From the NCBI RefSeq assembly GCF_049243625.1, contig NZ_CP046975.1: a stretch of 32,000 nt of DNA; one strand, given 5' to 3'. Numbering within the stretch: the first letter of the stretch is position 1; each line of letters opens with the position of its first letter. The notes beneath the pieces were generated by a model. It did no database searches. It worked only from the letters and a program-made list of their open reading frames with translations, and was not told the origin of the DNA. This document shows positions 8,241 to 28,477 of the stretch, one piece after another. The translations under genes were made by a program, and so were the position numbers. Source of the DNA: Corynebacterium amycolatum. Lineage in GTDB: Bacteria; Actinomycetota; Actinomycetes; Mycobacteriales; Mycobacteriaceae.

Positions 8241-9509
8241 GTGAAAGATTCAGGGGTGCAAGGGGCGCAAGTGACGTCGTCAAGCGAGAAAAACCGCAAG
8301 CCCATGATGAGTCTGCTGGGGCCTGCGTTTGTGGCGGCGATTGCCTACGTGGACCCCGGAAATGTGGCTGCGAACCTGTCTGCGGGCGCGAGCTACGGGT
8401 ATCTGCTGCTGTGGGTGCTGGTGGTGTCCAACCTCATGGCGATGGTTGTGCAGTACCTGTCGGCGAAGTACGGCCTGGTGACGGGGCGGTCGCTGACTGC
8501 AGGTGTTGCCGACCGCTTTGGTTCGAACCGGCCGGGGCGACTGGCGTACTGGGTGCAGGCCGAAATCGTGGCAGCAGCGACGGATGTGGCGGAAATTATT
8601 GGTGGTGCCACCGCGCTGTATCTGCTTTTCGGGACGCCGATGCTGCTCGGTGGTGTCATTGTTGGTGTGGTCTCGCTGGGGCTGTTGCTGCTGCAGGGTG
8701 GGCGTTCGCAACGCACTTTTGAAGGCGTGATTGTGGCGTTCCTGCTGGTCATTACGGTGGGGTTCCTGGCCGGCCTGTTTGTTACGGGCTTGAGCCTCGG
8801 GGAGATGGCCAACGGAATTCTGCCACGCTTCCAAGGCGCGCACACCGTGGTACTGGCGGCGTCCATGCTGGGCGCGACCGTGATGCCGCATGCGGTCTAC
8901 CTGCACTCCGGGCTGGTGCGCGACCGCGAGTACAAGGTGGAAGATGACGCTTCGCTGCGCCAACACCTGCGTGCCACGCGTATCGATGTCTTCGGTGCCC
9001 TCGTGCTGGCCGGGTCGGTGAATATCGGCATGCTGTGTCTTGCGGCCGAAGCGCTTCCGGGAGTGGAGGGGACTGACTCCATCGAAGGTGCCCACGCTGC
9101 CGTGACCAGCGCACTTGGTCCCGTGGTGGGCATACTTTTCGGCGTTGGGCTGCTGGCCTCCGGGCTGGCGTCGTCCTCTGTCGGCTGCTACGCCGGCGAC
9201 CTGATTATGCGTGACCTGTTGAAAGTACACGTGCCGATGCTGGTGCGCCGCATAGTCACCATCATTCCGGCGCTGCTCATTATCGCCAGCGGTGCGGAGC
9301 CGACCTGGGCGCTGGTGCTCAGTCAGGTGGTGCTGTCGATTGGTATCCCGTTTGCGCTGGTCCCGCTGGTGTACATGACCTCCTCGCGTGCCGAGATGGG
9401 CATCTGGGCCAACACCCCACTACTGCGCCGGGTCGCGTGGGTTATCTGCGGACTCATCATCGCGCTCAACGTGGCGCTGGTGGTCCTGGTGCTGATGGGG
9501 AAGGGGTAG
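8241..9509 (+). CDS. mntH: Nramp-family divalent metal (Mn2+/Fe2+) transporter
   Basis: Nramp signatures AYVDPGN and GATVMPHAVYLHS, with about 11 hydrophobic segments. The start is uncertain: GTG 8241 or ATG 8304. Confidence 0.9.
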   Translation: MKDSGVQGAQVTSSSEKNRKPMMSLLGPAFVAAIAYVDPGNVAANLSAGASYGYLLLWVLVVSNLMAMVVQYLSAKYGLVTGRSLTAGVADRFGSNRPGRLAYWVQAEIVAAATDVAEIIGGATALYLLFGTPMLLGGVIVGVVSLGLLLLQGGRSQRTFEGVIVAFLLVITVGFLAGLFVTGLSLGEMANGILPRFQGAHTVVLAASMLGATVMPHAVYLHSGLVRDREYKVEDDASLRQHLRATRIDVFGALVLAGSVNIGMLCLAAEALPGVEGTDSIEGAHAAVTSALGPVVGILFGVGLLASGLASSSVGCYAGDLIMRDLLKVHVPMLVRRIVTIIPALLIIASGAEPTWALVLSQVVLSIGIPFALVPLVYMTSSRAEMGIWANTPLLRRVAWVICGLIIALNVALVVLVLMGKG

Positions 9510-9755
9510 TCAGCGGGCGAGGTGGAAGGTAGTAGCTTCCGGGAGGGGGAGGTGGGGGCTTCGTCGTAAAGCGTGCGGGAGATGGTAGACAAAGCTGTCT
9601 AGTTGGTGTTAGGGTGGGCGACACGATCACAAGATATCGACGAGAAATGGCCTTTGACAGCGTCGATAGGCAACCGCCCGATTCGCGGACCCGGTGCCCC
9701 AAAGGAAGATCAGCCCCACAGACCGCCTGCGGGGAAGAGCGAATAGGAGCGCCAA

Positions 9756-10109
9756 ATGCACACCACAATCAGCGACGTCCACATCATCCACCTCAGCCGT
9801 CACACCGCTGACCTCCTCGTCGACGGTCGACCCGTCGCCATCCGGCTGCAAGAAGCCGACATCGACCCCCACTCCCGGAATCTCGTCCAACTCCCCGTCG
9901 ACCCCGCCTTCTACGCCACCCTCCGCGGCCAACAACGCGCCGACTACCTCAGCGCCCACGTCCGCGACGGCGTACGCTACGGTCGCATCCTCTGGCATGA
10001 GCTTGACGACGGCCGCCACTTCCTCACCATCCCCACCGTCGGTGGCTACCACGTGCACCAGGTCTTTGAAGTCCGCCGCAGCCGTGAGGGAGTGTGGAGT
10101 CGGCACTGA
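9756..10109 (+). CDS. Hypothetical protein
   Basis: 117-aa ORF with an AGGAG RBS 7-8 nt before the ATG. Protein-like composition, no recognised family. It contains one copy of each over-represented motif. Confidence 0.6.
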   Translation: MHTTISDVHIIHLSRHTADLLVDGRPVAIRLQEADIDPHSRNLVQLPVDPAFYATLRGQQRADYLSAHVRDGVRYGRILWHELDDGRHFLTIPTVGGYHVHQVFEVRRSREGVWSRH

Positions 10110-10143
10110 GCTTGGTGCAGTGAGCTTCGCGTGATGGATGCGG

Positions 10144-10251
10144 CATTGCGTGGATGAGCGCGGCGCGTGGATGAGCGTGGTGATGAGCGCGGCGCGTCTG
10201 ATGTAGTGAGCGCGGCGTTGCGTGGGTGAGCGTGGTGATGAGCGCGGCGCG
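10144..10251. repeat. Degenerate tandem repeats (GTGRTGAGCG[CGGCGC] units) upstream of amn
   Basis: The 32-nt block GCGTGGATGAGCGTGGTGATGAGCGCGGCGCG (10165-10196) recurs at 10220-10251 with one mismatch. Shorter related units flank both copies. Confidence 0.75.
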
Positions 10252-10287
10252 GATGCGAACGGGAAACTCTCCGCCTAGCCTTGGGAT

Positions 10288-11808
10288 ATGCAGGTACGAG
10301 ACTCCGCAACACCCCCGTTCTGGCCCACCGAGGGCGAAGGCGATTTCTACACCGACCCCGCCGCAGCCGTCGACCGGCTCACCGAAATCCACCGGGCAGG
10401 AATGGCCTACCTAATCGAGCAGTACACCGCCGCCACTAACGGAAATTCCGGGAGTGGGCCGGTGCGCGCCTACTACCCCGAACTACGCTTCACCGTCCCA
10501 GCCGGCAGCGCCGTCGAGGATGTCGACCCCTCCCTGTCACACGGCTTCGTCGACCGCCCGGGAGTGTACGCCACCACCATCACTCGCCCGGTGATGTTCC
10601 GCACCTACCTCATAGAGCAAATCAACGACCTGCTCGCCAACCACGGTGGCGAAGTCGAGGTGCGCGTCTCTGACCAGCCCATCCCACTCCGGATGTGCCG
10701 CGGCTTCGATGCGGCCGCCGAGGAAGCGGCGGGGAGGGAAGGAGCGTCGGCAAGCGCGTTGGCGGCAGTGGAGAAAACGTTCACCCCCATCGACTCCGCC
10801 TGCATTGACGACACCATCGCCGACGGCGAAGCCGACTACCTGGGCCTTCCCATCAAACCTTTGAGCCTCTTTACCGCCCAGCGCATCGACCTCGCCCTCC
10901 AGCGCCTCGAGCATTACACCGGGTCGCACGCCGCCAACATCCAGCGCTTCGTACTGTTCACCAACTACCAGCTGCACACCGACGTGTTCCTCGAGTACGC
11001 CGCCACCCTCACTCCCGGAAATCCCCGCGGATACACGGCGCTGGCGTGCCCGGGTGGGAAGCGCTACGACATCGGTGCCATCCCCACTCCCGGAATTTGC
11101 CGTCAGCACGCGCACGCCTCGCAGATGCCGGCGTACCACCTGCTTCGCGACGACCAATGCGGCATCACCATCATCGACATCGGCGTCGGCCCCTCGAATG
11201 CCAAGACCATCACCGATTGCCTCGCCGTCACGCGCCCGCACTGCTGGATGATGGTTGGACACTGTGCTGGCCTCGACGGCCGCATGCGCATCGGCGACAT
11301 GATTCTCGCCAACGGCTACGACCGCGCCGACGGAGTCCTCGACAACTACGTGCCCCTGGAAAAGCCCATCCCGCCGATTGCGGAAATTCAGCTCGCCGTC
11401 ACCAACGCGCTCGCCCGCGTCTCCGGACTTTCCGGCGATGAGCTGAAAAAGCGCCTACGCACCGGCACCGTGCTGTCGACCTCCGATCGCAACTGGGAGT
11501 GGCGCTCCCAGACCGACCTCTACCGGGAGCTGCAGAAATCCACCGCCATCGGCGTCGAAATGGAATCCGCCACCATCGCCGCCAACGGCTACCGCTTCCG
11601 CGTGCCCTACGGCGCGCTGCTCAGCGTCTCCGACATGCCACTGCACGACAAACCCAAACTCCCGAAATCTGCCCGCGAGTTCTACCAATCCTCCAAGGAG
11701 GAGCACCTCATGGCCGCCGTGCGCGCGTGCGAGGACATGGCCACCGCTCCCGACACCCTCCACTCCCGGAAGTTGCGTCGGCCGGTGGGAGAGGTTGCGT
11801 TCCGGTAG
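10288..11808 (+). CDS. amn: AMP nucleosidase
   Basis: 506 aa. Amn-like N-terminal domain plus a nucleoside-phosphorylase-type catalytic domain (GITIIDIGVGPSNAKTITD, MMVGHCAGL, GVEMESATIA). Confidence 0.88.
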   Translation: MQVRDSATPPFWPTEGEGDFYTDPAAAVDRLTEIHRAGMAYLIEQYTAATNGNSGSGPVRAYYPELRFTVPAGSAVEDVDPSLSHGFVDRPGVYATTITRPVMFRTYLIEQINDLLANHGGEVEVRVSDQPIPLRMCRGFDAAAEEAAGREGASASALAAVEKTFTPIDSACIDDTIADGEADYLGLPIKPLSLFTAQRIDLALQRLEHYTGSHAANIQRFVLFTNYQLHTDVFLEYAATLTPGNPRGYTALACPGGKRYDIGAIPTPGICRQHAHASQMPAYHLLRDDQCGITIIDIGVGPSNAKTITDCLAVTRPHCWMMVGHCAGLDGRMRIGDMILANGYDRADGVLDNYVPLEKPIPPIAEIQLAVTNALARVSGLSGDELKKRLRTGTVLSTSDRNWEWRSQTDLYRELQKSTAIGVEMESATIAANGYRFRVPYGALLSVSDMPLHDKPKLPKSAREFYQSSKEEHLMAAVRACEDMATAPDTLHSRKLRRPVGEVAFR

Positions 11809-11824
11809 GGCACTTTCGGGAGTG

Positions 11825-11867
11825 CGTCGTCAAGCCCGTTTGTGCAGATTGTGCATGCTTTACGACG
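11825..11867. repeat. Inverted pair of the GCTTGACGACG motif forming a hairpin downstream of amn
   Basis: CGTCGTCAAGC (11825-11835) and GCTTTACGACG (11857-11867) form an 11-bp stem with one mismatch and a 21-nt loop. The stem begins 17 nt after the amn stop. Confidence 0.65.
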
Positions 11868-11928
11868 GCTGTGGACAACGCCAAAAAGCGATTGAAGCCG
11901 TCCCCTCCCGGACGCTAGCCTTAGCCCC

Positions 11929-13107
11929 ATGACGACATTGGGACTGCTCAGCGCGCTGGCGACACGGGGGATTGACGTGCTCGCCGACCTGCGCGCCGCA
12001 CTCCCGGAAAAATCCACCGGGCACCGGGAGTTGGCGGCCAGCATCGGCTTCGACCCCTTCCGGCTCAAGCGCCTGCTGTGTTGCGCCGAGCGGCTGTTCG
12101 GCACCGTCGAGAAGGATGTTGATGTCGAATCCCGCGACAAAGCCGTCGCGATTGCCCGGGAGCTAAAGCTGTCGCTGGACACGGTCATGCAGATCGACAA
12201 GCGCTCCGGGCAGCTCAACAATGTCGAAATCCGGGAGTACTACCGCCTGGACTTCACCCGCGCCGCCGCGGCCTACGACTTCGAGGGCCTCGACACCTAC
12301 ATGCGGACCAAGGTCAAGGAGCTCAACCGCACCGACGAGCCGCCGCAGCACCTGCGCGCCCACGTCTCCCGGAATCCGGACATTCGCGGGATGAAGCACC
12401 TGCAGGTCACCGGTCCGGCGAACATGATTGACGACCTGGTCGCGCCGCTGACCGTGCGTGCAGCCGAAATCGCCAAAGCGCACGAGGACTACACCCGGGA
12501 TCGGTGCGTCGGTCAAGCGCTGGCAGAGCGCCTGGCGCACGGGTCGGAAGGGCCGCTTGACGACGTCGATAAGCTCCGTTACCAGCCCGCGCTCATCGTA
12601 ACCGCGCAAGACATCGTGGAGTACAGCCCGCGGTTTGCGGCGACCTCCAACGGCTCCGTCCTCACTCCCGGACAATTCGTCGAGGCGCTGCTCGCAGACA
12701 CCGGCTGGGTGCTGGTCTACGACGAGCACAACACGCCGACCGACCTACTCCCGATGCACAACCCGCGCCTGGCGACGGAGGAGCAGCGCATTGCGATGAT
12801 CCTCGACAACCCCATCTGCGCGTGGCCCGGGTGCCCGCGCCCCGCCCACGCCGGGCAGGCCCATCACCTGGTCGCCAGGAAAAACGGGGGCGCCACGACC
12901 ATGGAAAACATGGTTATGACCTGCAAAGAGCACAACGCCGCCAACGATGACGACAGGCAAGGCCTCAACGGGCACCTCGAGCGTGACGACGGCTCCGGCG
13001 CGGTCTACCGTCACCCGCCGTCTCCGCACGCGCCGCCCGAATTCAACCTTGCCTTCCCGACAGCTCTCGCGGGGCGGGCCTACTCGGGCTACCGTCAGCG
13101 CGAATAG
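11929..13107 (+). CDS. DUF222/HNH endonuclease family protein (13E12-repeat-type actinobacterial HNH protein)
   Basis: 392 aa. C-terminal HNH module (CAWPGCPRPAHAGQAHHLVARKNGGATTMENMVMTCKEHN) after a long helical N-terminal region typical of DUF222 proteins. Confidence 0.82.
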   Translation: MTTLGLLSALATRGIDVLADLRAALPEKSTGHRELAASIGFDPFRLKRLLCCAERLFGTVEKDVDVESRDKAVAIARELKLSLDTVMQIDKRSGQLNNVEIREYYRLDFTRAAAAYDFEGLDTYMRTKVKELNRTDEPPQHLRAHVSRNPDIRGMKHLQVTGPANMIDDLVAPLTVRAAEIAKAHEDYTRDRCVGQALAERLAHGSEGPLDDVDKLRYQPALIVTAQDIVEYSPRFAATSNGSVLTPGQFVEALLADTGWVLVYDEHNTPTDLLPMHNPRLATEEQRIAMILDNPICAWPGCPRPAHAGQAHHLVARKNGGATTMENMVMTCKEHNAANDDDRQGLNGHLERDDGSGAVYRHPPSPHAPPEFNLAFPTALAGRAYSGYRQRE

Positions 13108-13111
13108 CTTT

Positions 13112-13138
13112 ACATATATACCCGTAGGGGGTATATGT
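13112..13138. promoter_or_regulatory. Putative CsoR operator in the cop promoter
   Basis: ATATACCC-gtagg-GGGTATAT: a G/C tract flanked by an AT-rich inverted repeat. It lies 7-30 nt upstream of the copZ start. The architecture resembles known CsoR operators, and csoR is encoded in the same operon. Confidence 0.65.
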
Positions 13139-13144
13139 TGGGGT

Positions 13145-13354
13145 ATGGCTAATCAAACTTTTACTGTTACTGGCATGACATGCGGGCACTGCGAGGCGTC
13201 GGTGCGGGAGGAAGTCTCTGAACTCCCGGGAATCACCGATGTCCAGGTTGACCGCTCCCGGAATTTCCTCTCCGTGACTTCGGAGGCAGACATCGACACC
13301 GCTGCCGTAATCGCAGCAGTGGATGAAGCTGGCTACAAGGCGGTCGCAAACTAA
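13145..13354 (+). CDS. copZ: Heavy-metal-associated (HMA) copper chaperone
   Basis: MANQTFTVTGMTCGHCEASV... is a single HMA domain with MxCxxC. The start is placed at ATG 13145. The longer track ORF (from 12947) overlaps the HNH gene. Confidence 0.88.
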   Translation: MANQTFTVTGMTCGHCEASVREEVSELPGITDVQVDRSRNFLSVTSEADIDTAAVIAAVDEAGYKAVAN

Positions 13355-13379
13355 CCCCCCCAAAAAAAGAGGAAAGTAG

Positions 13380-15578
13380 ATGTCCGAGCAGCAACTTCTC
13401 ACTCTTGATATCCCCGTCGGCGGGATGACGTGTGCGTCGTGCGCAAACCGTATTCAACGCAAGCTGAACAAACTTGATGGAGTTAACGCGAGCGTGAACT
13501 ATGCGACCGAGAAGGCGCATGTGGAGGCGCCGGCGGACATCAACCCGCAGCAACTCATCGACACGATCGTGGCGGCAGGTTACACTGCTGAGCTTCCGCA
13601 GGAGGAGTCCGAACAGGAACCGGAAGCTGCTCCCGAAGAAAAAGACCGGGAGCTGCAGGACCTGCGCAATCGCGTCGTCGGCGCTGTCATCCTCACGGTT
13701 CCCGTCATCGCGATGTCGATGATTCCTGCCCTCCAATTCACTAATTGGCAGTGGCTGTGCCTCACGCTCTCGGCGCCGGTCTTTGTGTGGGCCGGCTGGC
13801 CGTTCCATCGCGCGACGCTGAAGAACCTGCGTCATGGTGAAGTCACCATGGACACGCTGATCACCATGGGTACGACCGCCTCGTTCCTCTGGAGCGTCTG
13901 GGCGTTGTTCTTCGGGCGCGCCGGGCTGCCGGGGCTTAAGCACGAGTTCCACTTAACGGTCACTCCCGGCGATGCTGATATGAACATCTACCTCGAGGCG
14001 ATGGCCGGCATCATCATGTTTGTGCTGCTCGGTCGTTATTTCGAGAAGCGTTCTAAGCGCAATGCTGGTCAGGCGCTCCGGGAGTTGATGAAGCTCGGCG
14101 CCAAGGAGGTCTCCGTTCTCGAAAGTTCGGGAGTGGAGAAGCGGCTGCCCGTGGAACAGCTCCGCCCGGGAGTGGTGTTCGTCGTTAGGCCTGGTGAGAA
14201 GATCGCGACGGATGGCGTTGTCGTGGAGGGTGCGTCGGCGGTGGATGCGTCGATGCTGACCGGAGAGCCGATGCCTGTCGAGGTCGGCCCTGGCGATGAG
14301 GTGACAGGGGCGACGATTAATACGTCTGGGCGGTTGCTCGTGCGGGCGACGCGCGTGGGCTCGGAGACGCAGTTGGCGCAGATGGCAGCGATGGTCGAGG
14401 CGGCGCAGACGGGCAAGGCACCGGTGCAGCGGCTAGCGGACCGGGTTTCGGGAGTGTTCGTGCCCGCCGTCATCGCGATCGCCGTGGTCACGCTCGGTGC
14501 GTGGTTGCTCACGGGGCACGGCGCGAGTGAGGCGGTCACGGCTGCGGTCGCCGTACTCATTATCGCGTGCCCGTGTGCGCTTGGCTTAGCGACGCCCACA
14601 GCGCTCCTGGTCGGCACGAGTGAAGGTGCCAAGGCGGGTGTGTTGCTGCGCGGCCCGGAGGTGCTGGAGTCGGCGCGGAAGGTCGACACGGTTGTGCTGG
14701 ATAAGACCGGCACGGTGACTACGGGTGTGATGGAGTTGACGGAGGTTCCTCCCACTCCCGAAAATCTGGTGCCGCTTGCCGCTTCGGTGGAAGCGGCGTC
14801 GCACCACCCGATTGCGCAGGCAATTGTGCGTGCGGCGGATCCGGATTCCCTACTCCCGGTTTCTGATTTCCGGGATATTCCGGGAGTGGGGGTTGAGGGC
14901 ACCGTAGACGGCCACCGCATCGAGGTCGGCCGCTCCGGGGAAAATTCCGGGAGTGGGGGGACGGTGGTTGCGGTGCGCCGCGACGGCGAGCTCCTGGGCA
15001 CGTTGGAGGTGTCGGATTCGGTGAAGCCGACGTCGGCGGCTGCGGTCGCGAAATTCCGGGAGTGGGGAGTGCGGCCGATTCTGCTGACCGGCGACGCCGC
15101 CGGCCCTGCGTTTCGCGTTGCGGATAAGGTCGGTATTGCTCGCGAGGACGTGATTTCGGGAGTGATGCCGGAGGATAAGGTCGCGACGATTGAGAAGTTG
15201 CAGGCCAGCGGCGCGTCCGTGGCGATGGTCGGCGATGGCATTAATGATGCTGCGGCTCTTGCGCAGGCGGATTTGGGCATGGCGATGGGCACGGGCACCG
15301 ATGTGGCGATGGAGGCCGCGGATATCACGCTGGTGCGTGGTGATTTGTTGGCGGCTGCGGATGCGCTGCGGTTGTCTCGCCGGACGCTCCGCACGATTCG
15401 GTCAAATCTTTTTTGGGCGTTTTTCTACAACGTTTTGGCAATTCCTGTCGCCGCACTGGGGTTGTTGAATCCGATGTTGGCTGGCGCTGCAATGGCGTTT
15501 TCGTCGGTTTTTGTGGTCGGCAACAGTCTGCGTCTGCGCGGTTTTCTCCGAGTCAAACAGAAAGTTAAAAAGGAGTAA
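13380..15578 (+). CDS. copA: Copper-translocating P1B-type ATPase
   Basis: N-terminal GMTCASC HMA domain, CPC motif ([12 protein letters not shown]), DKTGT phosphorylation site, GDGINDA hinge. Confidence 0.95.
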
Positions 15579-15581
15579 TTC

Positions 15582-15929
15582 ATGAGTGAGTCTTGTTGTT
15601 CGTCTCAATCGCATTCGCTTGACGACGGTTCTTGCTGCCATGACACCACTGATCCCGGTTATCTTTCGGAGAAGCGGCGTTATGAGTCCCGTATTCGTCG
15701 CATTGAGGGGCAGGTTCGTGGCATTGGTCGGATGATTGAGAACGAAGAGTACTGTATCGATGTTTTGACCCAGATTTCGGCGGTGAATTCGGCGTTGAAG
15801 TCGTTGGCGTTGACTCTTCTGGATGCTCATCTTCATCACTGTGTGGTGCATGCGGCTGAGGGTGGCCAGGAGGAGTTGGATGCCAAGCTGGAGGAGGCCT
15901 CGGCGGCAATCGCTCGGCTGGCTAAGTAA
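15582..15929 (+). CDS. csoR: CsoR-family copper-sensing transcriptional repressor with a Cys-rich N-terminal extension
   Basis: DUF156/CsoR core (IRRIEGQVRGIGRMIENEEYCIDVLTQISAV...HLHHCV). Extra N-terminus MSESCCSSQSHSLDDGSCCHD. The start is 4 nt after the copA stop. Confidence 0.9.
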   Translation: MSESCCSSQSHSLDDGSCCHDTTDPGYLSEKRRYESRIRRIEGQVRGIGRMIENEEYCIDVLTQISAVNSALKSLALTLLDAHLHHCVVHAAEGGQEELDAKLEEASAAIARLAK

Positions 15930-15951
15930 CTCCCGGAAAAATTCCGGGAGT
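15929..15951. repeat. Perfect 23-nt palindrome ACTCCCGGAA-AAA-TTCCGGGAGT abutting the csoR stop codon
   Basis: 10-bp arms with a 3-nt loop. The first base is the last A of the csoR TAA. No U-run follows, so terminator function is not established. Confidence 0.9.
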
Positions 15952-16127
15952 GGGGTGGCCGTCGTGAAGCGAAACGGCGGTCAGCGGTCGGTGGTCGGGT
16001 GCCGTCTTTTGCTTTCGGTTGTTGGTTGCACTGGTGGTGTCGATAGTGCCACTTGAATTCTACGTTTCCCCTGTTCGTCGGCGTGTTTTGGGAAAATCGG
16101 ATTTGTTGGGTAGTCTTTAACGACGTT

Positions 16128-16213
16128 GGAGGATTCGACTAGCGGCCTATGTCACACGCCTGGAACGCGTGCGGGAGTCACATCCCTCGTGGGTTCAAAT
16201 CCCACATCCTCCG
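16128..16213 (+). tRNA. tRNA-Ser (anticodon GGA)
   Basis: Manual cloverleaf: acceptor GGAGGAT/ATCCTCC, D stem GAC/GTC, anticodon stem CACGC/GCGTG with loop CTGGAAC, long variable arm (GGGA/TCCC), T arm GTGGG-TTCAAAT-CCCAC, discriminator G. CCA is not encoded. Confidence 0.9.
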
Positions 16214-16215
16214 CA
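16197..16215 (+). repeat. attL core (AAATCCCACATCCTCCGCA; T-loop to 3' end of tRNA-Ser)
   Basis: Exact 19-bp direct repeat of 22012-22030. Confidence 0.9.
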
Positions 16216-16328
16216 AATGGGAACCCTCAGGTAGAAAACTACCTGGGGGTTTTCCCGTATCCATGCTGGTAAGGCACCATAAAGCATACACAATAAGTAT
16301 TGACTCGTCTCAACTGATATCGTTTGAA

Positions 16329-16351
16329 CTGTCACGAAAAGCTGTCACGCG
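16329..16351 (+). repeat. 23-bp block CTGTCACGAAAAGCTGTCACGCG (two CTGTCACG octamers), putative recombinase arm-type sites
   Basis: An exact copy lies at 21933-21955 in the same orientation. The block is located between attL and the int start codon. Confidence 0.8.
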
Positions 16352-21175: not shown

Positions 21176-21273
21176 GGGTTTATCTCAGCAATCTTAGCGA
21201 ATCTCAACCACTGAATACGCTGCATTATTGCAGTTCAGAGACGGTATCTAGGGGCTTATCTTCCAATCTCAGT
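21173..21273. repeat. Reverse-orientation copies of the GAGATTGG repeat and a ~22-bp direct repeat just 3' of the primase gene (candidate replication origin)
   Basis: CCAATCTCAG (21263-21272) is the exact reverse complement of CTGAGATTGG (19627-19636). AATCTC occurs at 21200 and 21265. TAGGGGYTTATCT..CAATCT occurs at 21173 and 21249, flanking the palindrome CTGCATTATTGCAG. Confidence 0.55.
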
Positions 21274-21663
21274 GTTTTGCAAAATTCTCCACTGAAAAAC
21301 ACGACAACACCAGCCGGGGATAAGTCCTAACCCGTCCAACATTGATGAAACTGTCACGTGCCCAACTCGTTCCCGGGCGCACGCGCGCGCGGTATATAGT
21401 CCAGAAACAAAAGAGCGCTGTGGCTCGTTTTAAGCGCTTGGGGGCTACTTAGGTATGTGCGCTTATCGTTCAACGCTTTAGAAGTGATTTGTGAACAGGG
21501 GTTTTGCAGAGTTTTGGGCGGGGCACACCGTCTATCGCCTAGCGAGACGCTAGAGCCTACGCGCACCGGGCTAAACCACGGCAGGGGCGGGGTATAGGTG
21601 CACCGCGCGACAATTTCCCCTACGCCCCGGTATCAGCCCGGCGCGCCGGGCGGGTCTAGTGGG

Positions 21664-21888
21664 TTACTCAGCGTCCATGTGTTCCCGCATGGCTCGATTG
21701 AATACGTCGGCAATATCGGCGCCCGCGTTTCGGTCAATGCTGAGTATCTGGTCTGTGATGATCTCTAGGTGAGTATCGGTGATTGGTTCGCCCTCACCGG
21801 GACTTGGTACGCCTGGGAACATTGCGGCCATGAGAAGGCTGGATAGCCCCTCATAGATCCGTTCTGTGAGTGTTGGCTGAGTGTCCAT
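21664..21888 (-). CDS. Small acidic hypothetical protein (74 aa)
   Basis: The start is set at ATG 21888 (MDTQPTL...) with AAGGA upstream. The longer track ORF (to 21939) would overlap the CTGTCACG repeats. Confidence 0.5.
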   Translation of the reverse strand: MDTQPTLTERIYEGLSSLLMAAMFPGVPSPGEGEPITDTHLEIITDQILSIDRNAGADIADVFNRAMREHMDAE

Positions 21889-21916
21889 AGTTGGGTTGGT
21901 TTCCTTTGGCTTTAGG

Positions 21917-21955
21917 CTGTCACGGACTGAGACTGTCACGAAAAGCTGTCACGCG
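21917..21955 (+). repeat. Three CTGTCACG octamers near attR, including the 23-bp block 21933-21955
   Basis: CTGTCACG at 21917, 21933 and 21946, with one further copy at 21351. All are on the + strand. Confidence 0.8.
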
Positions 21956-22011
21956 ACATGGTAAGCGGGTGAATAAGTGCCCCTCACCAGCGGAGGAGCG
22001 AAAAAGTGGCG

Positions 22012-22126: not shown

Positions 22127-23581
22127 GTGGTCATTATGTTTAATAAGCGCCCGAGAATCCGAAGAGCCGGTCGAGACCGTACAGGTGCTCCTTTCGGCTC
22201 TTTAGGTTCTGGCCGGAAATTACGAGCTGCCATCGCGGCGGTGTCGGCTGTATCGCTCGCCACGCTGGCGGCGGGTTGTGGTTCGGAGGCTCAGCAGGAT
22301 TCGGCGCCGGTACTGCGGATTATGGGTCCGGCGGATGGTTCGGATCAGTATACGCAGGCGGCGCAGAAGTGCTCGGATGCGTCGGGCGGGAAGTATCGCC
22401 TGGAGTATGACATTTCGGCGAAGCAGACGGATGATCAGCGTCTTCAGTTGGCTCGTCGCATTGTGGGCGGAGATTCCTCGTTCGACATAATGGGCCTTGA
22501 TGTGACGTGGACTCCGGAGTTTGCGGAGGCGGGCTGGGCGCTCCCACTCCCGGAAGATATGGCCGAGCGCGTTACGGAGGGTACCCTGTCGGGTCCGTTG
22601 GATACGGCGACGTGGCAGGATCAGCTCTATGGTGCTCCGTTGAATACGAATACGCAGCTCCTGTGGTATCGAAAGTCGCTGGTAGATGGCCCGCCGAAGA
22701 CGTGGGATGACTTAATCGCGACGGGGGAGAGGCTCGCCGATGAGGGCAAGCCGTCGATGATTGGCGTCCAGGCTGCCCAGTTTGAGGGCTCGGTGGTGTG
22801 GCTCAATTCGATGACAGCGTCGGCGGGCGGTCAGCTAGTCGCGCCGGATGGGCAGTCGGTCACAATTGCGGATAACGATGCCGCGGAGCGCGCCTTGAGC
22901 ACCATGCATCGCGTGGCCACGGCGAAGGGGCATGACCCGTCGATTTCGCAGTCGGATGAGAACCAGGCTCGTCTGGCATTCGACCGCGGCGATGCATTTG
23001 CGCAGGTGAATTACCCATTTGTTTATGCCGGTGCGAAGGAGAAGGCGGAGTCGGGAAATCAGGTGGCCAAGGAGGTCTTCGAAGACATGGCCTGGACCAC
23101 CTACCCGGCGATGGATGAGGGCACACCGGCGCAGGTCACGATTGGTGGCCTTAACCTTGCGGTGCCGTCGACGTCGAAGCACCCGGAGCTCGCTTTCGAG
23201 GCCATCGACTGCCTGCGCAATGAGCAAAACCAGCTCAACAACGCGTTGAAGGGTGGTCTGCCGCCGACGTTGGCGAAGCTTTACACGCAGGCCACGGATG
23301 AATTCAAGGAGGAATACCCGTTCTACCGCGAGATCTACGAGCAGTTGAACACGTTGGAGGAAGCCGATTCGGCTGAGCTGTCGCAGGAGGAGCGGGCGCT
23401 GTTACCGTCGCCACGCACGGCCGGTGTGGTGACGCGCCCGAAGTCCCCTGCGTACCAGTCGTTGTCGATTTTGATGGCGTCGCGCATTAGTCCACCGGAG
23501 GATGTTGATGCGAAGTCGCTGGTCGGCACGCTTGATGAGGAACTTCAGGCGGCCGTGAACTCGGAAGGCCTGGTGCCGTAA
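22127..23581 (+). CDS. Sugar ABC transporter substrate-binding lipoprotein (LpqY-like)
   Basis: Signal peptide with lipobox LAAGC. Family-1 solute-binding protein length. First gene of an SBP, two permeases and ATPase operon whose order and sizes match LpqY-SugABC-type trehalose importers of Corynebacteriales. The substrate is inferred only. The start could be 22127 or ATG 22136. Confidence 0.82.
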   Translation: MVIMFNKRPRIRRAGRDRTGAPFGSLGSGRKLRAAIAAVSAVSLATLAAGCGSEAQQDSAPVLRIMGPADGSDQYTQAAQKCSDASGGKYRLEYDISAKQTDDQRLQLARRIVGGDSSFDIMGLDVTWTPEFAEAGWALPLPEDMAERVTEGTLSGPLDTATWQDQLYGAPLNTNTQLLWYRKSLVDGPPKTWDDLIATGERLADEGKPSMIGVQAAQFEGSVVWLNSMTASAGGQLVAPDGQSVTIADNDAAERALSTMHRVATAKGHDPSISQSDENQARLAFDRGDAFAQVNYPFVYAGAKEKAESGNQVAKEVFEDMAWTTYPAMDEGTPAQVTIGGLNLAVPSTSKHPELAFEAIDCLRNEQNQLNNALKGGLPPTLAKLYTQATDEFKEEYPFYREIYEQLNTLEEADSAELSQEERALLPSPRTAGVVTRPKSPAYQSLSILMASRISPPEDVDAKSLVGTLDEELQAAVNSEGLVP

Positions 23582-24499
23582 ATGTCTGATAAATCTACGA
23601 AAACTAAGTCTGCGCTTTCCGACGGGCGCCGCGCCGAGCGTCGCCTCGGTCTGCTGTTGGTGGCTCCTGCGCTGATTTTGATGCTGGCGGTGACGGCGTA
23701 CCCCATTGGGTACGCGATTTGGCTGTCGCTGCAGCGCTATGACCTGCGTTTCCCCGATGACCGCGAGTTTATCGGCCTGCAGAACTACGCATCCGTGTTG
23801 ACCAGCAGTTATTGGTGGGAAGCGCTGGGCGTGACGGCGTTTATCACGCTGGTTTCGGTGGCGGTTGAACTGGTGCTTGGCATGGCTATCGCGATGGTGA
23901 TGTACCGCGCGATTTTCGGCCGCGGCCTGATCCGCACGGTGGTGTTGATTCCGTACGGCATCGTCACGGTGGCGGCGGCGTACTCGTGGAATTACGCGTG
24001 GACGCCGGGGACGGGGTATCTCGCTAATTTGCTTCCCGACGGCACCGCGCCGCTGACGGAGCAATGGCCGTCGATATTTATCATTATCGGCGCTGAAATT
24101 TGGAAGACGACTCCATTCATGGCGCTGCTGCTTCTTGCGGGTCTGGCGCTGGTGCCTGACGACGCGCTGAAGGCGGCCGAGTTGGATGGTGCGGGTTTCT
24201 GGCAGCGCTTTTTCAGGATCACGTTGCCGCTGATGAAGCCATCGATTGTGGTGGCTCTGCTGTTCCGCACTCTGGATGCTTTCCGAGTGTTCGACAACAT
24301 CTACATTCTGACCAAGGGCAATAATGGCACTGGTTCGGTGTCGATTCTGGGTTACAACAACCTGTTTAAGGCGTTCAACCTGGGTATTGGTTCAGCAATT
24401 TCGGTGTTGATCTTCGTGTGCGTGGCGCTGATTGCAATTGTGTTCGTCAAGGGCTTCGGGGCCTCGTCGCCAGGCGCGGCCACGGGCAAGAATAATTAG
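23582..24499 (+). CDS. Carbohydrate ABC transporter permease (SugA-like)
   Basis: 305 aa with six hydrophobic segments in a MalF/BPD-type permease layout. The ATG directly follows the SBP stop. Confidence 0.88.
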   Translation: MSDKSTKTKSALSDGRRAERRLGLLLVAPALILMLAVTAYPIGYAIWLSLQRYDLRFPDDREFIGLQNYASVLTSSYWWEALGVTAFITLVSVAVELVLGMAIAMVMYRAIFGRGLIRTVVLIPYGIVTVAAAYSWNYAWTPGTGYLANLLPDGTAPLTEQWPSIFIIIGAEIWKTTPFMALLLLAGLALVPDDALKAAELDGAGFWQRFFRITLPLMKPSIVVALLFRTLDAFRVFDNIYILTKGNNGTGSVSILGYNNLFKAFNLGIGSAISVLIFVCVALIAIVFVKGFGASSPGAATGKNN

Positions 24500-24511
24500 G
24501 AGGCGATTGCA

Positions 24512-25351
24512 GTGCACAACACGGATAAGACACCGAAGCAACGCGTCGCATGGACAATCGGCATCGCTTTGGTGGTCATTTACGCGCTGGTGCCGGTGCT
24601 GTGGATTGCCAGCTTGTCGTTCAAGCCGACAACCGATCTGCACGATGGCCACTTCATCCCGCGCAATTGGACGTTGGATAACTACCGCGGCATCTTCCAG
24701 ACCAGTGAATTTACCCGCGCGCTGATCAACTCGATTGGTATTGGGCTGATCACAACGCTGCTGGCGGTAATTGTCGGCACGATGGCGGCCTACGCAATCG
24801 CTCGCCTGGAGTTTCCAGGCAAGTCGGTGATTTTGGGAGTCTCGCTGCTAATCGCCATGTTCCCGCAGGTCTCCCTGGTCAGCCCACTGTTCGACATCGA
24901 GCGCAAGCTCGGTCTGTTCGACACCTGGCCGGGCCTGATTCTGCCGTACATCACTTTCGCACTTCCGATGGCGATCTTTATTCTGTCCTCCTTCTTCCGG
25001 GAGATTCCCTGGGAGCTGGAGAAGGCGGCGCAAATGGACGGCGCGACCCCTTTCCAGGCATTCCGCCTGGTGGTGGCGCCGCTGGCGATTCCGGGAATTG
25101 TCACCGCTGCAATTCTGGTGTTCATCTTCGCGTGGAATGACTTCCTGTTGGCGGTGTCGTTGACCTCGACGGAGGCGGCACGTACGGCACCGGCGGCGAT
25201 GGCGAACTTCACCGGCTCGTCGCAGTTCGAGGAGCCGACCGGTTCCATCGCGGCGGCCGCGATTGTCATCACCATTCCGATTGTCATCTTTGTGGTTATT
25301 TTCCAACGTCGAATTGTCGCTGGTCTTACCTCCGGCGCAGTCAAGGGCTAA
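24512..25351 (+). CDS. Carbohydrate ABC transporter permease (SugB-like)
   Basis: 279-aa MalG-type permease ([26 protein letters not shown] loop). AGGAGG precedes the GTG start. Confidence 0.88.
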
Positions 25352-25369
25352 AGAAGGTTAGAGCTAAAA

Positions 25370-26527
25370 ATGGCTGAAATTGAACTAAAGCACGTGTACA
25401 AGCGCTTTCCTGATGGTCACATCGGTGTGGAAGACGCGAATCTCAAAATCGACGACGGCGAGTTCATCATCCTCGTCGGCCCCTCCGGTTGCGGTAAGTC
25501 GACGATGCTGAACATGATTGCAGGGCTGGAGGACATCTCCGAAGGTGACCTGCTCATCGACGGCGAGCGCATGAACGATGTCGCTCCGAAGGACCGTGAT
25601 ATCGCCATGGTGTTTCAGTCCTACGCGCTGTACCCGCACATGAACGTCCGCGAGAACATCGCTTTCCCGCTCAAGCTGGCAAAACTGCCGAAGAAGGAGA
25701 TCGAGAAGAAGGTCAACGAGGCCGCCGAAATTCTCGATCTGACGGAGTTCCTCGACCGCAAGCCCGCGCATCTCTCGGGTGGTCAGCGTCAGCGCGTGGC
25801 GATGGGCCGCGCCATCGTCCGCCGACCGAAGGTCTTCCTCATGGACGAGCCGCTCTCAAACCTGGACGCCAAGCTCCGCGTCCAGATGCGCACCGAAATT
25901 GCCCAGCTGCAGGAACGCCTCAGCACCACCACTGTCTACGTCACCCACGATCAAACTGAGGCCATGACGTTGGGCGACCGCGTCGTCGTGCTGAAAAAGG
26001 GCGTTATCCAGCAAATTGGCGCTCCGCAAGAGCTCTACCACCGACCGGTCAACGTCTTCGTCGCCGGCTTCATCGGCTCGCCCGCCATGAACTTCCTGCC
26101 TGCCACTGTGCTTGACGACGGCCACAGCGTCGACACCGCCCTGGGCCACCTGCCACTCCCGGAAAAATTTGCCCCGGGCCGGAAGGCTATCGTCGGCTTA
26201 CGACCAGAGGCTTTCGAAGACGCCGCCCTGACCGACGACAATTGCGATGCACCAACGGTCGAGGTCGAGGTGTCCGTCCTGGAGGCGATGGGCTCCGAGC
26301 AGTTCATCCACTTCCCACTCCCGGAAATTGATTTGAAGGGTCATGCCGCAGCTGAGGAGGCTGGCCTGGCGGATAACCCGCATGCCATGTTGGTGGCTCG
26401 AGTCGATGCGGAGTCGAATGTGCGTCGAGGTCAGAAGATTACGTTGGCCATCAACACGGACAAGTTGAATGTCTTTGATTCTGAGTCAGGTGAGAACTTG
26501 GCGTTGAAGGCTAAGAACCAAGACTAA
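25370..26527 (+). CDS. Sugar ABC transporter ATP-binding protein (SugC/MsiK/MalK-like)
   Basis: Walker A GPSGCGKST, LSGGQRQRV, Walker B FLMDEPLS, H-loop VTHD, MalK-type C-terminal regulatory domain. Confidence 0.92.
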   Translation: MAEIELKHVYKRFPDGHIGVEDANLKIDDGEFIILVGPSGCGKSTMLNMIAGLEDISEGDLLIDGERMNDVAPKDRDIAMVFQSYALYPHMNVRENIAFPLKLAKLPKKEIEKKVNEAAEILDLTEFLDRKPAHLSGGQRQRVAMGRAIVRRPKVFLMDEPLSNLDAKLRVQMRTEIAQLQERLSTTTVYVTHDQTEAMTLGDRVVVLKKGVIQQIGAPQELYHRPVNVFVAGFIGSPAMNFLPATVLDDGHSVDTALGHLPLPEKFAPGRKAIVGLRPEAFEDAALTDDNCDAPTVEVEVSVLEAMGSEQFIHFPLPEIDLKGHAAAEEAGLADNPHAMLVARVDAESNVRRGQKITLAINTDKLNVFDSESGENLALKAKNQD

Positions 26528-26586
26528 AACTGTTGGCCTGGCAGTGGTGTGACTTTTTGTACGTAGCTGTAGTAGGCTGTCTTCAC

Positions 26587-26672
26587 GGATCCCATGTGGC
26601 GTCCATCTCGTGAACTCCCCCAGGGCAGGAATGCAGCAAGGGTCAGCGAGCTCTGACGGGTGCGTGGGGTCC
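26587..26672 (+). ncRNA. ffs: Signal recognition particle RNA (small/4.5S type)
   Basis: Domain-IV-like core CAGG-GCA-GGAA-UGC-AGCA-AGGG (GGAA tetraloop, conserved AGCA). Nested helices CUCG.UGA/UCA.CGAG and CGUC/GACG. Closing helix GGAUCCCAUGUG/UGCGUGGGGUCC followed by a U-run. The exact ends are uncertain by a few nt. Confidence 0.78.
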
Positions 26673-26698
26673 CCTTTTTTTATCCCCGGCGTTCTTCT

Positions 26699-26866
26699 GG
26701 CACTTGTGGCAAGGTTTCGGGCACTTGTCGACGGTTTCCTGTGACCTATCGATGTTTTTCGGCACTTATCCCCGCGATATTGGCCAGGCCATTTCACCTA
26801 TCGATGAGCTATTCACTTATGGCCACGCTGCAGCGCATCGATAGGTGAATACCTTGGCCACAAGTG
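26699..26866. repeat. Nest of direct and inverted repeats between SRP RNA and the SulP gene
   Basis: The outer inverted repeat is CACTTGTGGCAAGG (26701-26714) with CCTTGGCCACAAGTG (26852-26866). GGCACTTRT occurs at 26699, 26720 and 26761, and CACTTAT at 26814. (C)ACCTATCGATG occurs at 26744 and 26794 and inverted at 26836, so 26794-26806 and 26836-26848 form a perfect 13-bp inverted repeat. Confidence 0.8.
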
Positions 26867-26905
26867 GTCGCGTTTCGCGTTCGCTGGTCTGGAAGAATAC
26901 TGTGT

Positions 26906-28477
26906 ATGAGCGATGCCAACGACATGCGAGTGCCACCGCAGGCAACACGAGAACCGCTAGAAACTCCAGAACCACAACAGCCACAGGCCCGAGAAGTCCC
27001 AGCGCCAATGGGCGTGTGGGATTCCTTCCGGTTCGCAGTTTCTTCACCGAAGCGCCTGCGCACCGAGCTGCTGGCTGGCGCAGCGGTGTCGTTCGCGCTG
27101 ATCCCCGAGGTCATTTCGTTTTCCATCTTGGCGGGCGTGGACCCGGCGGTGGGGCTGTTTAGCTCGGTGATTATGGCCATCGTGATTGCCTTCACGGGTG
27201 GTCGCCCGGCCATGATTACCGCTGCCGCTGGTTCGGTTGCGCTCGTCGTCGCGCCGTTGTCGCGGACGTACGGGATGGATTACCTCATCCCGACGGTGTT
27301 GCTCGCGGGCGTGTTGCAGATTGCTTTTGCGGCGTTGGGGATCGCTAAGCTGCAGCGTTTCATTCCGCGTGCGGTCATGATTGGCTTTGTCAACGCGCTG
27401 GGCATCCTCATTTTCACCGCGCAGCTGGAGCATCTCATCGATGTGCCGTGGCTGGTGTATCCGCTGGTCGCTCTGGGTATTGCAATTATGGTGTTCCTGC
27501 CCCGCGTGTTCACCGCGATTCCGGCTCCGCTGGTAACTGTGCTCGTCGTCACGCTTGTTGCGGTGTTGGCGGATTGGCGCGTGCCGAACGTGAGCGATAT
27601 GGGTGAGCTCCCGGAATCTCTCCCGCAGCTGCTGATTCCGAATGTGCCCCTGACCTGGGAGACTCTGCAGCTGATTGCGCCGTATGCGGTGGGCGTGGCG
27701 ATTGTCGGCATCATGGAATCGCTGATGACGGCGAAGCTCGTGGACGACATCACCGACACGCATTCGGACAAGACCCGTGAGACGTGGGGACTCGGTGTCG
27801 CGAATATCGCGGGCGGTTTCTTCGGCGGTATCGCTGGCTGCGCGATGATTGGTCAGACGATGGTGGGTGTGAAGGAATCGTCGGGACGCACTCGCTTGAC
27901 GACGCTCTTTTCCGGCGTCTTCCTGCTCATTCTGGTCCTTCTGCTCAGTTCCGCAGTCGGTGCGATTCCGATGGCGGCGCTGGTTGCGGTGATGGTCGTG
28001 GTGTCGGTGGACACGGTCGATTGGCGCTCGATTTCCCCGCGGACATTGCGCCTGATGCCGCGTTCGGAGACGGTGGTGATGCTGGTGACGGTCATCGCCA
28101 CGCTGGCGACGGATAACCTCGCCATCGGCGTAGTTTCGGGTGTGGTCGTGGCGTCGCTGATGTTCGCGCGCCGTGTCGCTCACCTGGTCAGGATCGAAGT
28201 GCTTGACGACGACCCCAGCGCCCACTCCCGGACGTACAAGGTGCGGGGTCAGCTGTTCTTCGCCTCCAGTAACGACCTGGTGTACCAGTTCGACTACACC
28301 GACCCTGCGCAGCGCATTGTGATCGACATGTCGGAGGCCGAAATTTGGGATGCTTCCACGGTGGCGGCATTGGATTCGGTGCGGGTCAAGTTTGCTGACC
28401 GGGGCAAAGAGGTGGAAATTATCGGCTTGGAGGGGCCGAGTAAGCAGCGTCTGGATGCTCTGTCGGGGAAGTTGTAG
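26906..28477 (+). CDS. SulP-family inorganic anion transporter with a C-terminal STAS domain
   Basis: SulP N-terminal pattern (LLAGAAVSFALIPEVISFSILAGVDP), many TM segments, and a STAS-like tail (YKVRGQLFFASSNDLV...). The start is set at ATG 26906. The track start at 26864 lies in the repeat nest. Confidence 0.87.
   Translation: MSDANDMRVPPQATREPLETPEPQQPQAREVPAPMGVWDSFRFAVSSPKRLRTELLAGAAVSFALIPEVISFSILAGVDPAVGLFSSVIMAIVIAFTGGRPAMITAAAGSVALVVAPLSRTYGMDYLIPTVLLAGVLQIAFAALGIAKLQRFIPRAVMIGFVNALGILIFTAQLEHLIDVPWLVYPLVALGIAIMVFLPRVFTAIPAPLVTVLVVTLVAVLADWRVPNVSDMGELPESLPQLLIPNVPLTWETLQLIAPYAVGVAIVGIMESLMTAKLVDDITDTHSDKTRETWGLGVANIAGGFFGGIAGCAMIGQTMVGVKESSGRTRLTTLFSGVFLLILVLLLSSAVGAIPMAALVAVMVVVSVDTVDWRSISPRTLRLMPRSETVVMLVTVIATLATDNLAIGVVSGVVVASLMFARRVAHLVRIEVLDDDPSAHSRTYKVRGQLFFASSNDLVYQFDYTDPAQRIVIDMSEAEIWDASTVAALDSVRVKFADRGKEVEIIGLEGPSKQRLDALSGKL

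Follow-up and report, generated by a model that had tools for sequence, protein, structure and literature searches.

Locus and motif

The DNA analysed here is a stretch of 32,000 nucleotides of the Corynebacterium amycolatum genome (contig NZ_CP046975.1; hereafter the window, whose first letter is position 1), which carries numerous copies of a 10-mer, ACTCCCGGAA, inside unrelated genes on either side of a gene for a free-standing HNH protein, termed HNH-1. The core of this cloud of copies (9055..15951; 12 exact and 14 one-mismatch copies, both strands taken together) extends from the 3' end of mntH over the open reading frame ORF9756, the AMP nucleosidase gene amn, the HNH-1 gene, copZ and copA to csoR. 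An earlier note on this DNA, made from the letters alone, had recognized the motif and named its host genes in agreement with Pfam (Nramp/mntH, AMP nucleosidase, a weak HNH match, CopA, a solute-binding protein and a MalK-like ATPase); Pfam also gives CopZ, CsoR/RicR and a sugar ATP-binding cassette system among the window genes.

Exact ACTCCCGGAA occurs 15 times on the two strands of the window, compared to 0.07 expected from dinucleotide-preserving shuffles, and 33 sites are found at up to one mismatch, compared to 1.95 expected. The 15 exact coordinates and strands of the earlier note were all reproduced, as were its 14 one-mismatch sites, to which four further ones at 11658, 13222, 14754 and 25089 were added. 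The flank bias it described was borne out, with C at positions -1 to -4 in 10–14 of the 15 copies and A or T at +1 to +3; the resulting consensus, cCCCACTCCCGGAAwtt, is quasi-palindromic (cCCC-ACTCC-C-GGAA-wTT). Conserved sequence around the copies ends at ~17 nt, no terminal repeats or target duplications were found around them, and Rfam detects no RNA at the motif sites of the window, its matches being an S-adenosylmethionine (SAM)-IV riboswitch and a tRNA only. A shorter 8-mer word, ACTCCCGG, was counted across loci.

Upstream of the HNH-1 gene, exact copies lie in mntH (9055..9064, minus strand, read as P-G-V), in ORF9756 (9871..9880, plus, H-S-R) and at four positions of amn: in a variable loop (10446..10455, minus, N-S-G-S-G), at a site with an orthologous position in all three syntenic species (11011..11020, plus, T-P-G), at a site derived relative to the syntenic locus L257 and remoter orthologues (11086..11095, plus, T-P-G) and at 11762..11771 (plus), where the word encodes LHSRK, a peptide invariant across AMP nucleosidases including the proteobacterial ones. 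One exact copy is situated within the HNH-1 gene itself (12000..12009, plus, L-P-E) and forms the left arm of an inverted pair at 12000-12031. The copA gene harbors three on the minus strand, namely 14878..14887 (P-G-V), identical over 18 nt in three species and right arm of the inverted pair 14852-14887, 14945..14954 (N-S-G-S-G), which two lineages have lost through an in-frame deletion of 12 nt, and 15054..15063 (F-R-E-W). Two more, starting at 15929 and 15942, compose the perfect inverted pair ACTCCCGGAAaaaTTCCGGGAGT (15929..15951), whose base 1 is the final base of the csoR stop codon; it is not followed by a T-run and is conserved in related lineages. The inverted pairs 12000-12031 and 14852-14887, with 8-nt arms, and the palindrome ACTCCGGAGT at 22088 and 22511 exist as previously described. 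The outlying exact copies are all on the plus strand, one in the solute-binding protein gene (22546..22555), at ~3.6 kb from the HNH-1 gene without the strain-specific island described below, and two in the gene of the MalK-like ATPase (26155..26164 and 26317..26326).

Copies with one mismatch are found at 9537..9546 (minus; exact in lineage L147), in amn (11658..11667, plus), in the amn–HNH-1 spacer (11814..11823, minus, adjoining a copy of a second word, GCTTGACGAC), in the HNH-1 gene (12229..12238, minus; 12365..12374, plus; and 12664..12673, plus, with the sequence ACTCCCGGAC, read as L-T-P-G-Q and common to three species), in copZ (13222..13231 and 13254..13263, both plus) and in copA (14076..14085, minus; 14446..14455, minus, common to three species; 14754..14763, plus; 15154..15163, minus). 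Peripheral ones are located at 5277..5286, 7981..7990, 24995..25004 and 25089..25098 on the minus strand and at 27607..27616 and 28224..28233 on the plus strand. The copies use all six reading frames, and the frames and peptides given in the earlier note (TPG, HSR, LPE, NSGSG, PGV and FREW) are correct. As the peptides differ by frame, no single one accounts for the word, and the constraint acts on the DNA rather than on one peptide.

Confinement of the motif to the surroundings of one gene

The window was extended to 48.7 kb of chromosome via the loci of its edge genes (flanks L249 and L252). Twelve of the 15 exact copies fall within 6.9 kb (9055-15951) and the other three within 22546-26326; none occurs in the 18 kb to the left (-8884..9054) or in the 13.5 kb to the right (26327..39874). 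A complete scan of a metagenome collection for the 17-mer CCCCACTCCCGGAATTT returned 111 stretches, and every stretch with more than one copy corresponds to this locus, the remainder being single matches at about chance rate. The matched contigs included some of 50-214 kb from the same organisms, yet multiple copies were present at this locus only; a scan of viral contigs with a 16-mer gave only single matches at chance level. The motif is thus not the genome-wide uptake-signal-like tag considered in the earlier note, but is essentially confined to this window, a finding for which local duplication had been offered as the explanation. Since the copies sit in unrelated genes and were created by point substitutions (see below), local duplication does not apply either. 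The clustering itself, and the HNH gene in its middle, had been overlooked.

Within 4 kb of the midpoint of the HNH-1 gene the density of ACTCCCGG amounts to 2.6/kb, compared to 0.20/kb outside; the corresponding values are 4.0 and 0.15/kb for L255, 2.6 and 0.29/kb for L257, and 2.75 and 0.68/kb for L259, three related loci introduced below. After removal of the island, the counts per 2-kb bin (0, 1, 0, 3, 7, 5, 6, 1, 1, 2) describe a bell-shaped curve falling to both sides, and the whole cloud comprises ~30 copies in neighboring genes, at distances of up to roughly 4-6 kb from the HNH gene. In an unbiased scan, every 8- or 9-mer with at least six copies was tested for enrichment in a zone reaching from 3.5 kb before the HNH gene to 3.5 kb after it. 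A-type words came out on top (composite p=5.5e-11 among 1358 words; L255, 7.6e-12; L257, 5.8e-8; L259, 6.7e-5), and in locus L263 the top word was CATCCGGA (2e-4 among 134 words, borderline after correction). No word with consistent flanks stood out in the same scan of loci that lack the gene.

Genome contigs were also scanned for the hairpin pattern ACTCCCGGAA-N(0-20)-TTCCGGGAGT, and at least two orthologous Corynebacterium loci are among the matches listed; the orthologous locus of C. amycolatum SK46 is 94% identical. Unrelated hairpins of Chryseobacterium, Chloroflexota and gut metagenome-assembled genomes (MAGs) dominate among the matches listed. The arms ACTCCCGGAA...TTCCGGGAGT recur in the Chloroflexota MAG FK_Sedi_A_Bin.40 (L022, L023, L052, L061, L073, L074, L093, L112, L113, L117 and L134), on contigs of bin LJ_bin-0733 (L030, L032, L069, L081 and L095) and, in many Chryseobacterium species, at a single locus. 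Hairpins of this kind are thus much more frequent than expected from a random model, and the recurring ones are probably hairpin repeats or terminators belonging to those genomes themselves.

The HNH-1 gene

The gene at the center of the cloud (11929..13107, plus strand) encodes a 392-residue HNH (beta-beta-alpha-Me) nuclease, the presumed recognizer of the motif. Pfam and NCBIfam searches with the protein yielded a weak HNH match only and no HUH/Y1 transposase; its database signal consists of the HNH motif alone, which most resembles that of IscB. The residues of the pattern CxxC...HH...N...C..HN (C297, C302, H312, H313, N327, C332, H335 and N336) are invariant in 11 homologues. A word-indexed search revealed 12 close homologues, all from Corynebacterium. 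With an exhaustive profile search the family grew to 407 cluster representatives at E<1e-10, 46 of them at E<1e-30; most are full-length proteins of ~400 residues. The annotation of the family is at present limited to "HNH endonuclease signature motif containing protein". The ratio of non-synonymous to synonymous substitution rates (dN/dS) of HNH-1 against the two syntenic species is 0.16-0.21, like that of neighboring genes, and the dN/dS values obtained for the gene range from 0.13 to 0.21 overall. The invariant catalytic motif together with this purifying selection indicates that the gene is functional.

Neither HNH-1 nor nine closer relatives match DUF222 (PF02720); the remote relative P0305 alone matches both DUF222 and HNH. 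No anti-phage defence model of PADLOC was matched, no phage homologues of HNH-1 were found and plasmid homologues were remote only; a scan of viral contigs for relatives of the protein returned a single weak HNH relative.

Other gene contexts and the HNH-2 paralogue

Remoter homologues of HNH-1 sit between unrelated genes, and four different contexts were found for the family gene. In L259 a 55%-identical HNH protein is encoded between pknL (for a PknL-like kinase) and aroG (for a class II 3-deoxy-D-arabinoheptulosonate 7-phosphate synthase), and 31 copies of ACTCCCGG occupy positions 2934-17582 of this locus, with none in its outer 6.6 kb. This context has natural empty sites: in L262 (Corynebacterium sp. 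H78, aroG 90% identical) and L261 (C. sphenisci), pknL lies directly beside aroG and the HNH gene is absent. L262 contains one ACTCCCGG and L261 five, which corresponds to chance level at 77% GC, while CACTCCCGGA and the 10-mer are missing from both. Codon alignments indicate that the copies of L259 are derived relative to both empty-site genomes, often by non-synonymous changes.

A second subfamily, HNH-2, is ~58% identical and encoded beside glyA in the loci L263 and L258. Its surroundings are marked by a different word, yACATCCGGAmwTTT (ACATCCGGAmTTT). The nine copies of CATCCGGA in L263 all fall at 9485-13894, no more than 3.5 kb from the gene, and the 21 kb of this locus contain no ACTCCCGG; the orthologous L258 displays a similar, weaker pattern. 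The two words are reciprocally exclusive, as the HNH-1 loci contain 25-34 copies of ACTCCCGG and 0-3 of ACATCCGG, and the cores differ by one spacer base, TCC-C-GGA for HNH-1 and TCCGGA for HNH-2. Judging from cluster names, both paralogues occur together in strains of C. amycolatum, Corynebacterium sp. MSK035, sp. HMSC073H12 and C. lactis RW2-5. Three further dialect candidates, CCACCTCG (L260), AACTCCGC (L258) and CCTCCCGG (L261), turned out to be ordinary frequent words lacking consistent flanks and were discarded.

Origin and turnover of the copies

Two syntenic species, represented by L255 (AMP nucleosidase 88% identical) and L257 (74%), retain the gene order of the window. They contain 16 and 5 exact 10-mers and 34 and 25 copies of ACTCCCGG, respectively, in each case centered on the HNH gene; L257 favors the variant CACTCCCGGACTTT (dialect GGACTTT). 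Some sites are orthologous in position across the species and others lineage-specific. The alignment of host proteins with their orthologues, which the earlier note had recommended, was carried out and indicates that the copies are derived substitutions, mostly several per site, in variable or tolerant loops. A few coincide with in-frame indels of 9-12 nt and most align without gaps. As the orthologues differ by substitutions and at most by tiny indels, the copies are not remnants of an inserted palindromic element, another of the roles proposed there.

Genes within the cloud resemble those beyond it in their amino-acid identity to the syntenic species, which argues for inheritance of the region as a unit and against its import; among close strains the divergence inside and outside is likewise similar. 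Across six lineages of 93-97% identity, 4 of 116 core columns are variable (3.4%) compared to 78 of 718 flanking columns (10.9%, p=0.011), and in the comparison of the window with L255 core identity reaches 90%, that of the remaining sequence 79% (p=0.006). Relative to L257 the cores are no better conserved than the background. Among close lineages 7 of 19 sites are polymorphic, including the 12-nt deletion that removes copy 14945, and the cloud nonetheless persists at 25-34 ACTCCCGG copies over a synonymous divergence (dS) of 0.6-1.0. Short-term conservation of the cores combined with polymorphism and turnover between species suggests that individual sites are sheltered from change over short times but give way to others over long ones, their number being maintained.

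Orientation and a promoter-proximal site

For an orientation test, full-length cores within 5 kb of the gene were pooled from three independent contexts, hairpin pairs being dropped. Upstream of the HNH stop codon 16 copies lie on the sense strand of the gene and 6 on the antisense strand, downstream 1 and 10 (p=0.0008); with other pivots p is ~0.01. We regard convergence of the sites on the HNH gene as suggestive only. As all genes of the window core are on the plus strand, orientation does not follow gene strand.

A near-cognate site, CCCCTCCCGGAC, is positioned ~25 nt upstream of the HNH-1 start codon (11902..11913, plus strand) and is an exact CCACTCCCGGA in five of seven related lineages. 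Both HNH-2 loci carry an exact copy of their own motif at the same place, ~25 nt 5' of the start, an arrangement that would fit autoregulation. DnaA-box-like 9-mers were also noticed 5' of HNH-family genes in several unrelated contexts (the window, L257, L258, L260 and L263). They often occur as inverted pairs of the form TGTGGATAA...N17...TTATCCACA; the window contains TGTGGACAA at 11870-11878, and in L263 and L258 the repeats are situated ~60-100 nt upstream of the HNH start.

Interpretation and alternatives

The association between motif and gene holds in three contexts and against the empty-site control, it involves a paralogue-specific word and local enrichment, and the constraint is at the DNA level. 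Of the roles listed in the earlier note, this evidence favors the one in which a DNA-binding or recombination protein uses the word as its site. We propose, with a probability of roughly 55%, that the repeats are recognition sites of a chromosomal free-standing HNH nuclease which have accumulated in cis; HNH-1 would presumably be the protein that recognizes the motif. New copies would arise by several point substitutions, often amino-acid-changing, at tolerant loops of the host proteins, and their fixation in cis would come about by a drive-like process with a reach of about one recombination tract; once created, they would be kept better than their surroundings and turn over between species at a constant total. 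The mechanism of this accumulation is more speculative. Either the nuclease acts mainly near its place of synthesis and nick-directed repair is biased to the cognate sequence, or selection favors gene-facing sites for their contribution to the co-transfer or retention of the gene. As two proteins in one cell each possess a private cloud, the process must be restricted to cis, and we infer that the protein acts mainly beside its own gene or that only gene-linked sites gain a transmission advantage. Some transposases act mainly next to their own gene. A more far-reaching version, which we put forward tentatively and regard as rather doubtful, envisages a new type of selfish or domesticated element, in which a cis-only HNH nuclease, by biased nick-directed repair or by selection for co-transfer, writes and maintains an oriented array of its own recognition sites in neighboring genes at the cost of forced amino-acid changes, with arrays private to each paralogue.

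Several points weigh against the proposal of cis-accumulated recognition sites. A protein acting in trans should mark the whole genome, so that cis restriction has to be assumed, and sites that initiate recombination are normally lost by conversion (the hotspot paradox), which leaves the direction of the drive unexplained. Binding or cutting of the motif by HNH-1 is something we infer from sequence; the AlphaFold model of the protein is poor (mean predicted local distance difference test score, pLDDT, 52), and Foldseek and profile searches against the PDB found nothing beyond the HNH motif. The data read comprise ~49 kb of this genome and ~21 kb per relative, and genome-wide absence relies on one metagenome scan with a 17-mer. 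The independent genomic contexts number three, L258 is weak, and no cloud was detectable in L260, a 47% homologue on a 9.7-kb contig. With regard to orientation, the single-locus tests gave p=0.06-0.6, none being significant, the pivot was chosen after seeing the data, and counting the 8-mer at all distances revealed nothing in the window, L255 or L257.

The main rival is a donor signature, according to which the HNH gene and a few kb around it were imported by homologous recombination from an unsampled lineage with a genome-wide word, the cloud being a decaying tract and the protein unrelated to it. The width of the cloud is about that of a recombination tract and the GC content is slightly higher in the 10-16 kb region; the genome-contig scan bears on a donor only for the matches listed. 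An imported tract is disfavored by the similar divergence inside and outside the cloud, both from the two syntenic species and among close strains, by the persistence of 25-34 copies over dS 0.6-1.0, and by lineage-specific new copies and the GGACTTT dialect of L257, which appear to have arisen in place. The greater conservation of cores than flanks, the different words of the two paralogues and the lack of a donor-like multi-copy locus in the scanned metagenomes point in the same direction, and we judge this origin unlikely. Slightly less probable still is that the copies serve another factor or a DNA or RNA function, such as binding of the CsoR/RicR repressor or a nucleoid protein or long-range pairing within an operon RNA. 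The conserved cores speak for it, and the co-orientation of the core-cluster genes makes plus and minus copies complementary within one transcript. The HNH gene is, however, the only gene common to the three contexts (amn/copA, pknL/aroG and glyA), the word changes with the HNH paralogue, the cloud of L259 spans divergently oriented genes, and the motif is unlike the CsoR/RicR operator.

Footprints or miniature insertions of a small mobile element hopping locally around the HNH gene would account for the bell-shaped distribution about one point and for the few copies that coincide with 9-12 nt in-frame indels. Most copies, however, can be aligned to their orthologues without gaps, the differences being substitutions; they are accompanied neither by terminal repeats nor by target duplications, and one copy encodes the conserved peptide LHSRK, which makes this explanation very improbable. 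A miniature inverted-repeat transposable element or small insertion element was rejected for the same gap-free codon alignments and for the lack of conserved flanks past ~17 nt. The lowest probability, close to nil, is assigned to a genome-wide tag spread by biased uptake or recombination in the manner of the uptake signal sequences (USS) of Haemophilus and the DNA uptake sequences (DUS) of Neisseria. The size of the word, its occurrence on both strands and in all frames of genes, its biased flanks and inverted pairs and its absence from the strain-specific island are all USS/DUS-like. This rival is already contradicted by the 31 kb of flanking chromosome devoid of exact copies, by the single multi-copy locus in metagenome contigs of 50-214 kb, and by the absence of any copy from the 21 kb of the HNH-2 locus, the protein of which falls into a cluster with C. 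amycolatum sequences.

Comparison with known systems

USS and DUS consist of a core of 10-12 nt with weaker biased flanks, reside in genes in all frames and on both strands, partly as inverted pairs, are made by substitution at tolerant positions and are absent from recently acquired DNA. The present word shares its origin by substitution, in both orientations and all frames, with them. USS and DUS, however, are found all along the chromosome, about one in every kb, and are recognized by the competence machinery, whereas this word is limited to ~5 kb on either side of one gene, lacks a uniform chromosome-wide density and follows its gene to other loci. In the systems of repetitive extragenic palindromes (REP) and REP-associated tyrosine transposases (RAYT), including the paired REP elements known as REPINs, a single-copy nuclease-type gene is likewise flanked by its own repeat and the repeat co-varies with the protein clade, as it does here. 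RAYTs, however, are relatives of HUH/Y1 transposases, and REPs are extragenic hairpins present genome-wide in hundreds of copies. The present protein is an HNH nuclease and not of the HUH/Y1 (IS200/IS605-like) type, and the copies are mostly single half-palindromes in coding sequences, strictly local rather than dispersed extragenic hairpins.

Free-standing HNH homing genes, such as those of phage T4 MobE (PMC2790892) and I-HmuI, resemble the present gene as lone HNH reading frames between conserved genes, present or absent in relatives; the HNH core is conserved here too, and the insertion has its empty-site counterparts (L259 compared to L261 and L262). Flanking DNA is also expected to move together with a homing gene. 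Homing endonucleases, however, cut one site in genomes without the gene, the site of the carrier being disrupted or immune. As far as sequence comparison goes, the pattern here is the opposite, as carriers are enriched in sites, with 20-30 of them flanking their own gene, and empty-site genomes lack them. The gene is moreover chromosomal, vertically inherited over dS of ~0.6-0.9 and under purifying selection. The cloud thus fails a defining trait of each system, namely genome-wide spread, an HUH transposase with extragenic hairpins, or a target absent from the carrier.

The DUF222-HNH proteins (mycobacterial 13E12 repeat family) are remote relatives (P0305) of similar size with the same CxxC/HH/N/HN zinc-finger module, but the window protein falls short of the DUF222 model; we are aware of no report of a site cloud around genes of DUF222 proteins. 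Chi, the FtsK-orienting polar sequences (KOPS), the words left by very short patch (VSP) repair and the highly iterated palindrome HIP1 of cyanobacteria are also short words that reflect a DNA-processing enzyme and not coding, but they are all genome-wide and none is centered on the gene of its own enzyme. A local site cluster about the gene of its binding protein is found with parS around parB; parS, however, is a 16-bp palindrome with few copies near oriC and is read by the ParB CTPase, and a ParB domain is lacking here. In the literature searched, the word itself was matched by primers only, and searches on DUF222, 13E12 or HNH proteins and on flanking recognition sites gave nothing comparable, so the statement of the earlier note that no element of this sequence had been described found no contradiction. 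The literature searched contains no description of a gene-centered, intragenic site cloud, and we know of none.

If the link between gene and word is true, one nuclease gene would reshape unrelated neighbors, including their protein sequences, over several kb and long evolutionary time, which would amount to a natural sequence drive that is local instead of genome-wide. With one gene, one word and two paralogues whose words differ within the same cell, it would offer a tractable system for studying how USS, DUS, HIP1 and REP words accumulate. It could also provide a first function for the ~400-residue actinobacterial HNH family, remote relatives of DUF222/13E12, and might yield new sequence-specific nickases. 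A local k-mer excess, moreover, can mimic a genome-wide signal when one window alone is read.

A second word and other features of the window

The second word, GCTTGACGAC (extended form tTCGCTTGACGACg), is present in 12 exact copies in the window (1782, 6440, 8133, 8276 (minus), 10001, 11826 (minus), 12555, 15617, 26110, 27894, 28201 and 30337 (minus)) and in 18 in the 48.7 kb, evenly spread at ~1 per 2.7 kb. It occurs on both strands and mostly in one codon phase (x-L-D-D or V-V-K). Related species contain the variants GCTTGCCGAC, GCTTCCCGAC, GCTTTACGAC and GCTTCACGAC, and the word is absent from the strain-specific island, C. sphenisci and L260. A cause linked to the sense strand or to a single peptide was considered and failed once the wider family was counted. 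GCTTGACGAC, and not ACTCCCGGAA, is the candidate for a genome-wide signal. HNH-family genes have copies of GCTTNACGAC at up to ~100 nt from their ends in L259 (11258-11323), in L263 and L258 (~100 nt past the stop codon) and in the window (11826), a proximity that could be coincidental given the density of the word.

The strain-specific island (16216-22011), with a lower GC content of 52-55%, is inserted at the 3' end of tRNA-Ser(GGA) (16128-16214) and flanked by the direct repeat AAATCCCACATCCTCCGCA. Its products are a tyrosine integrase, a helix-turn-helix protein and a D5/DUF5906 primase-helicase. Strains L003 and L004 lack the island, and neither ACTCCCGGAA nor GCTTGACGAC occurs in it. The unannotated ORF9756 (9756-10109, 117 residues) has no family match, and the SAM-IV riboswitch is located directly 5' of it (9625-9745, plus strand; 48 bits compared to a gathering score of 38). 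A palindrome, ATACCC-N-GGGGTAT, distinct from ACTCCCGGAA, lies between the HNH-1 stop codon and copZ (13110-13145) and recurs in L255 at ~12900; it looks like a CsoR/RicR-type operator of the copZ-copA-csoR operon. Finally, the spacer between ORF9756 and amn contains an imperfect tandem repeat of ~29 nt, GATGAGCGCGGCGCGTGGATGAGCGTGGT, in 3.5 copies (10153-10251).

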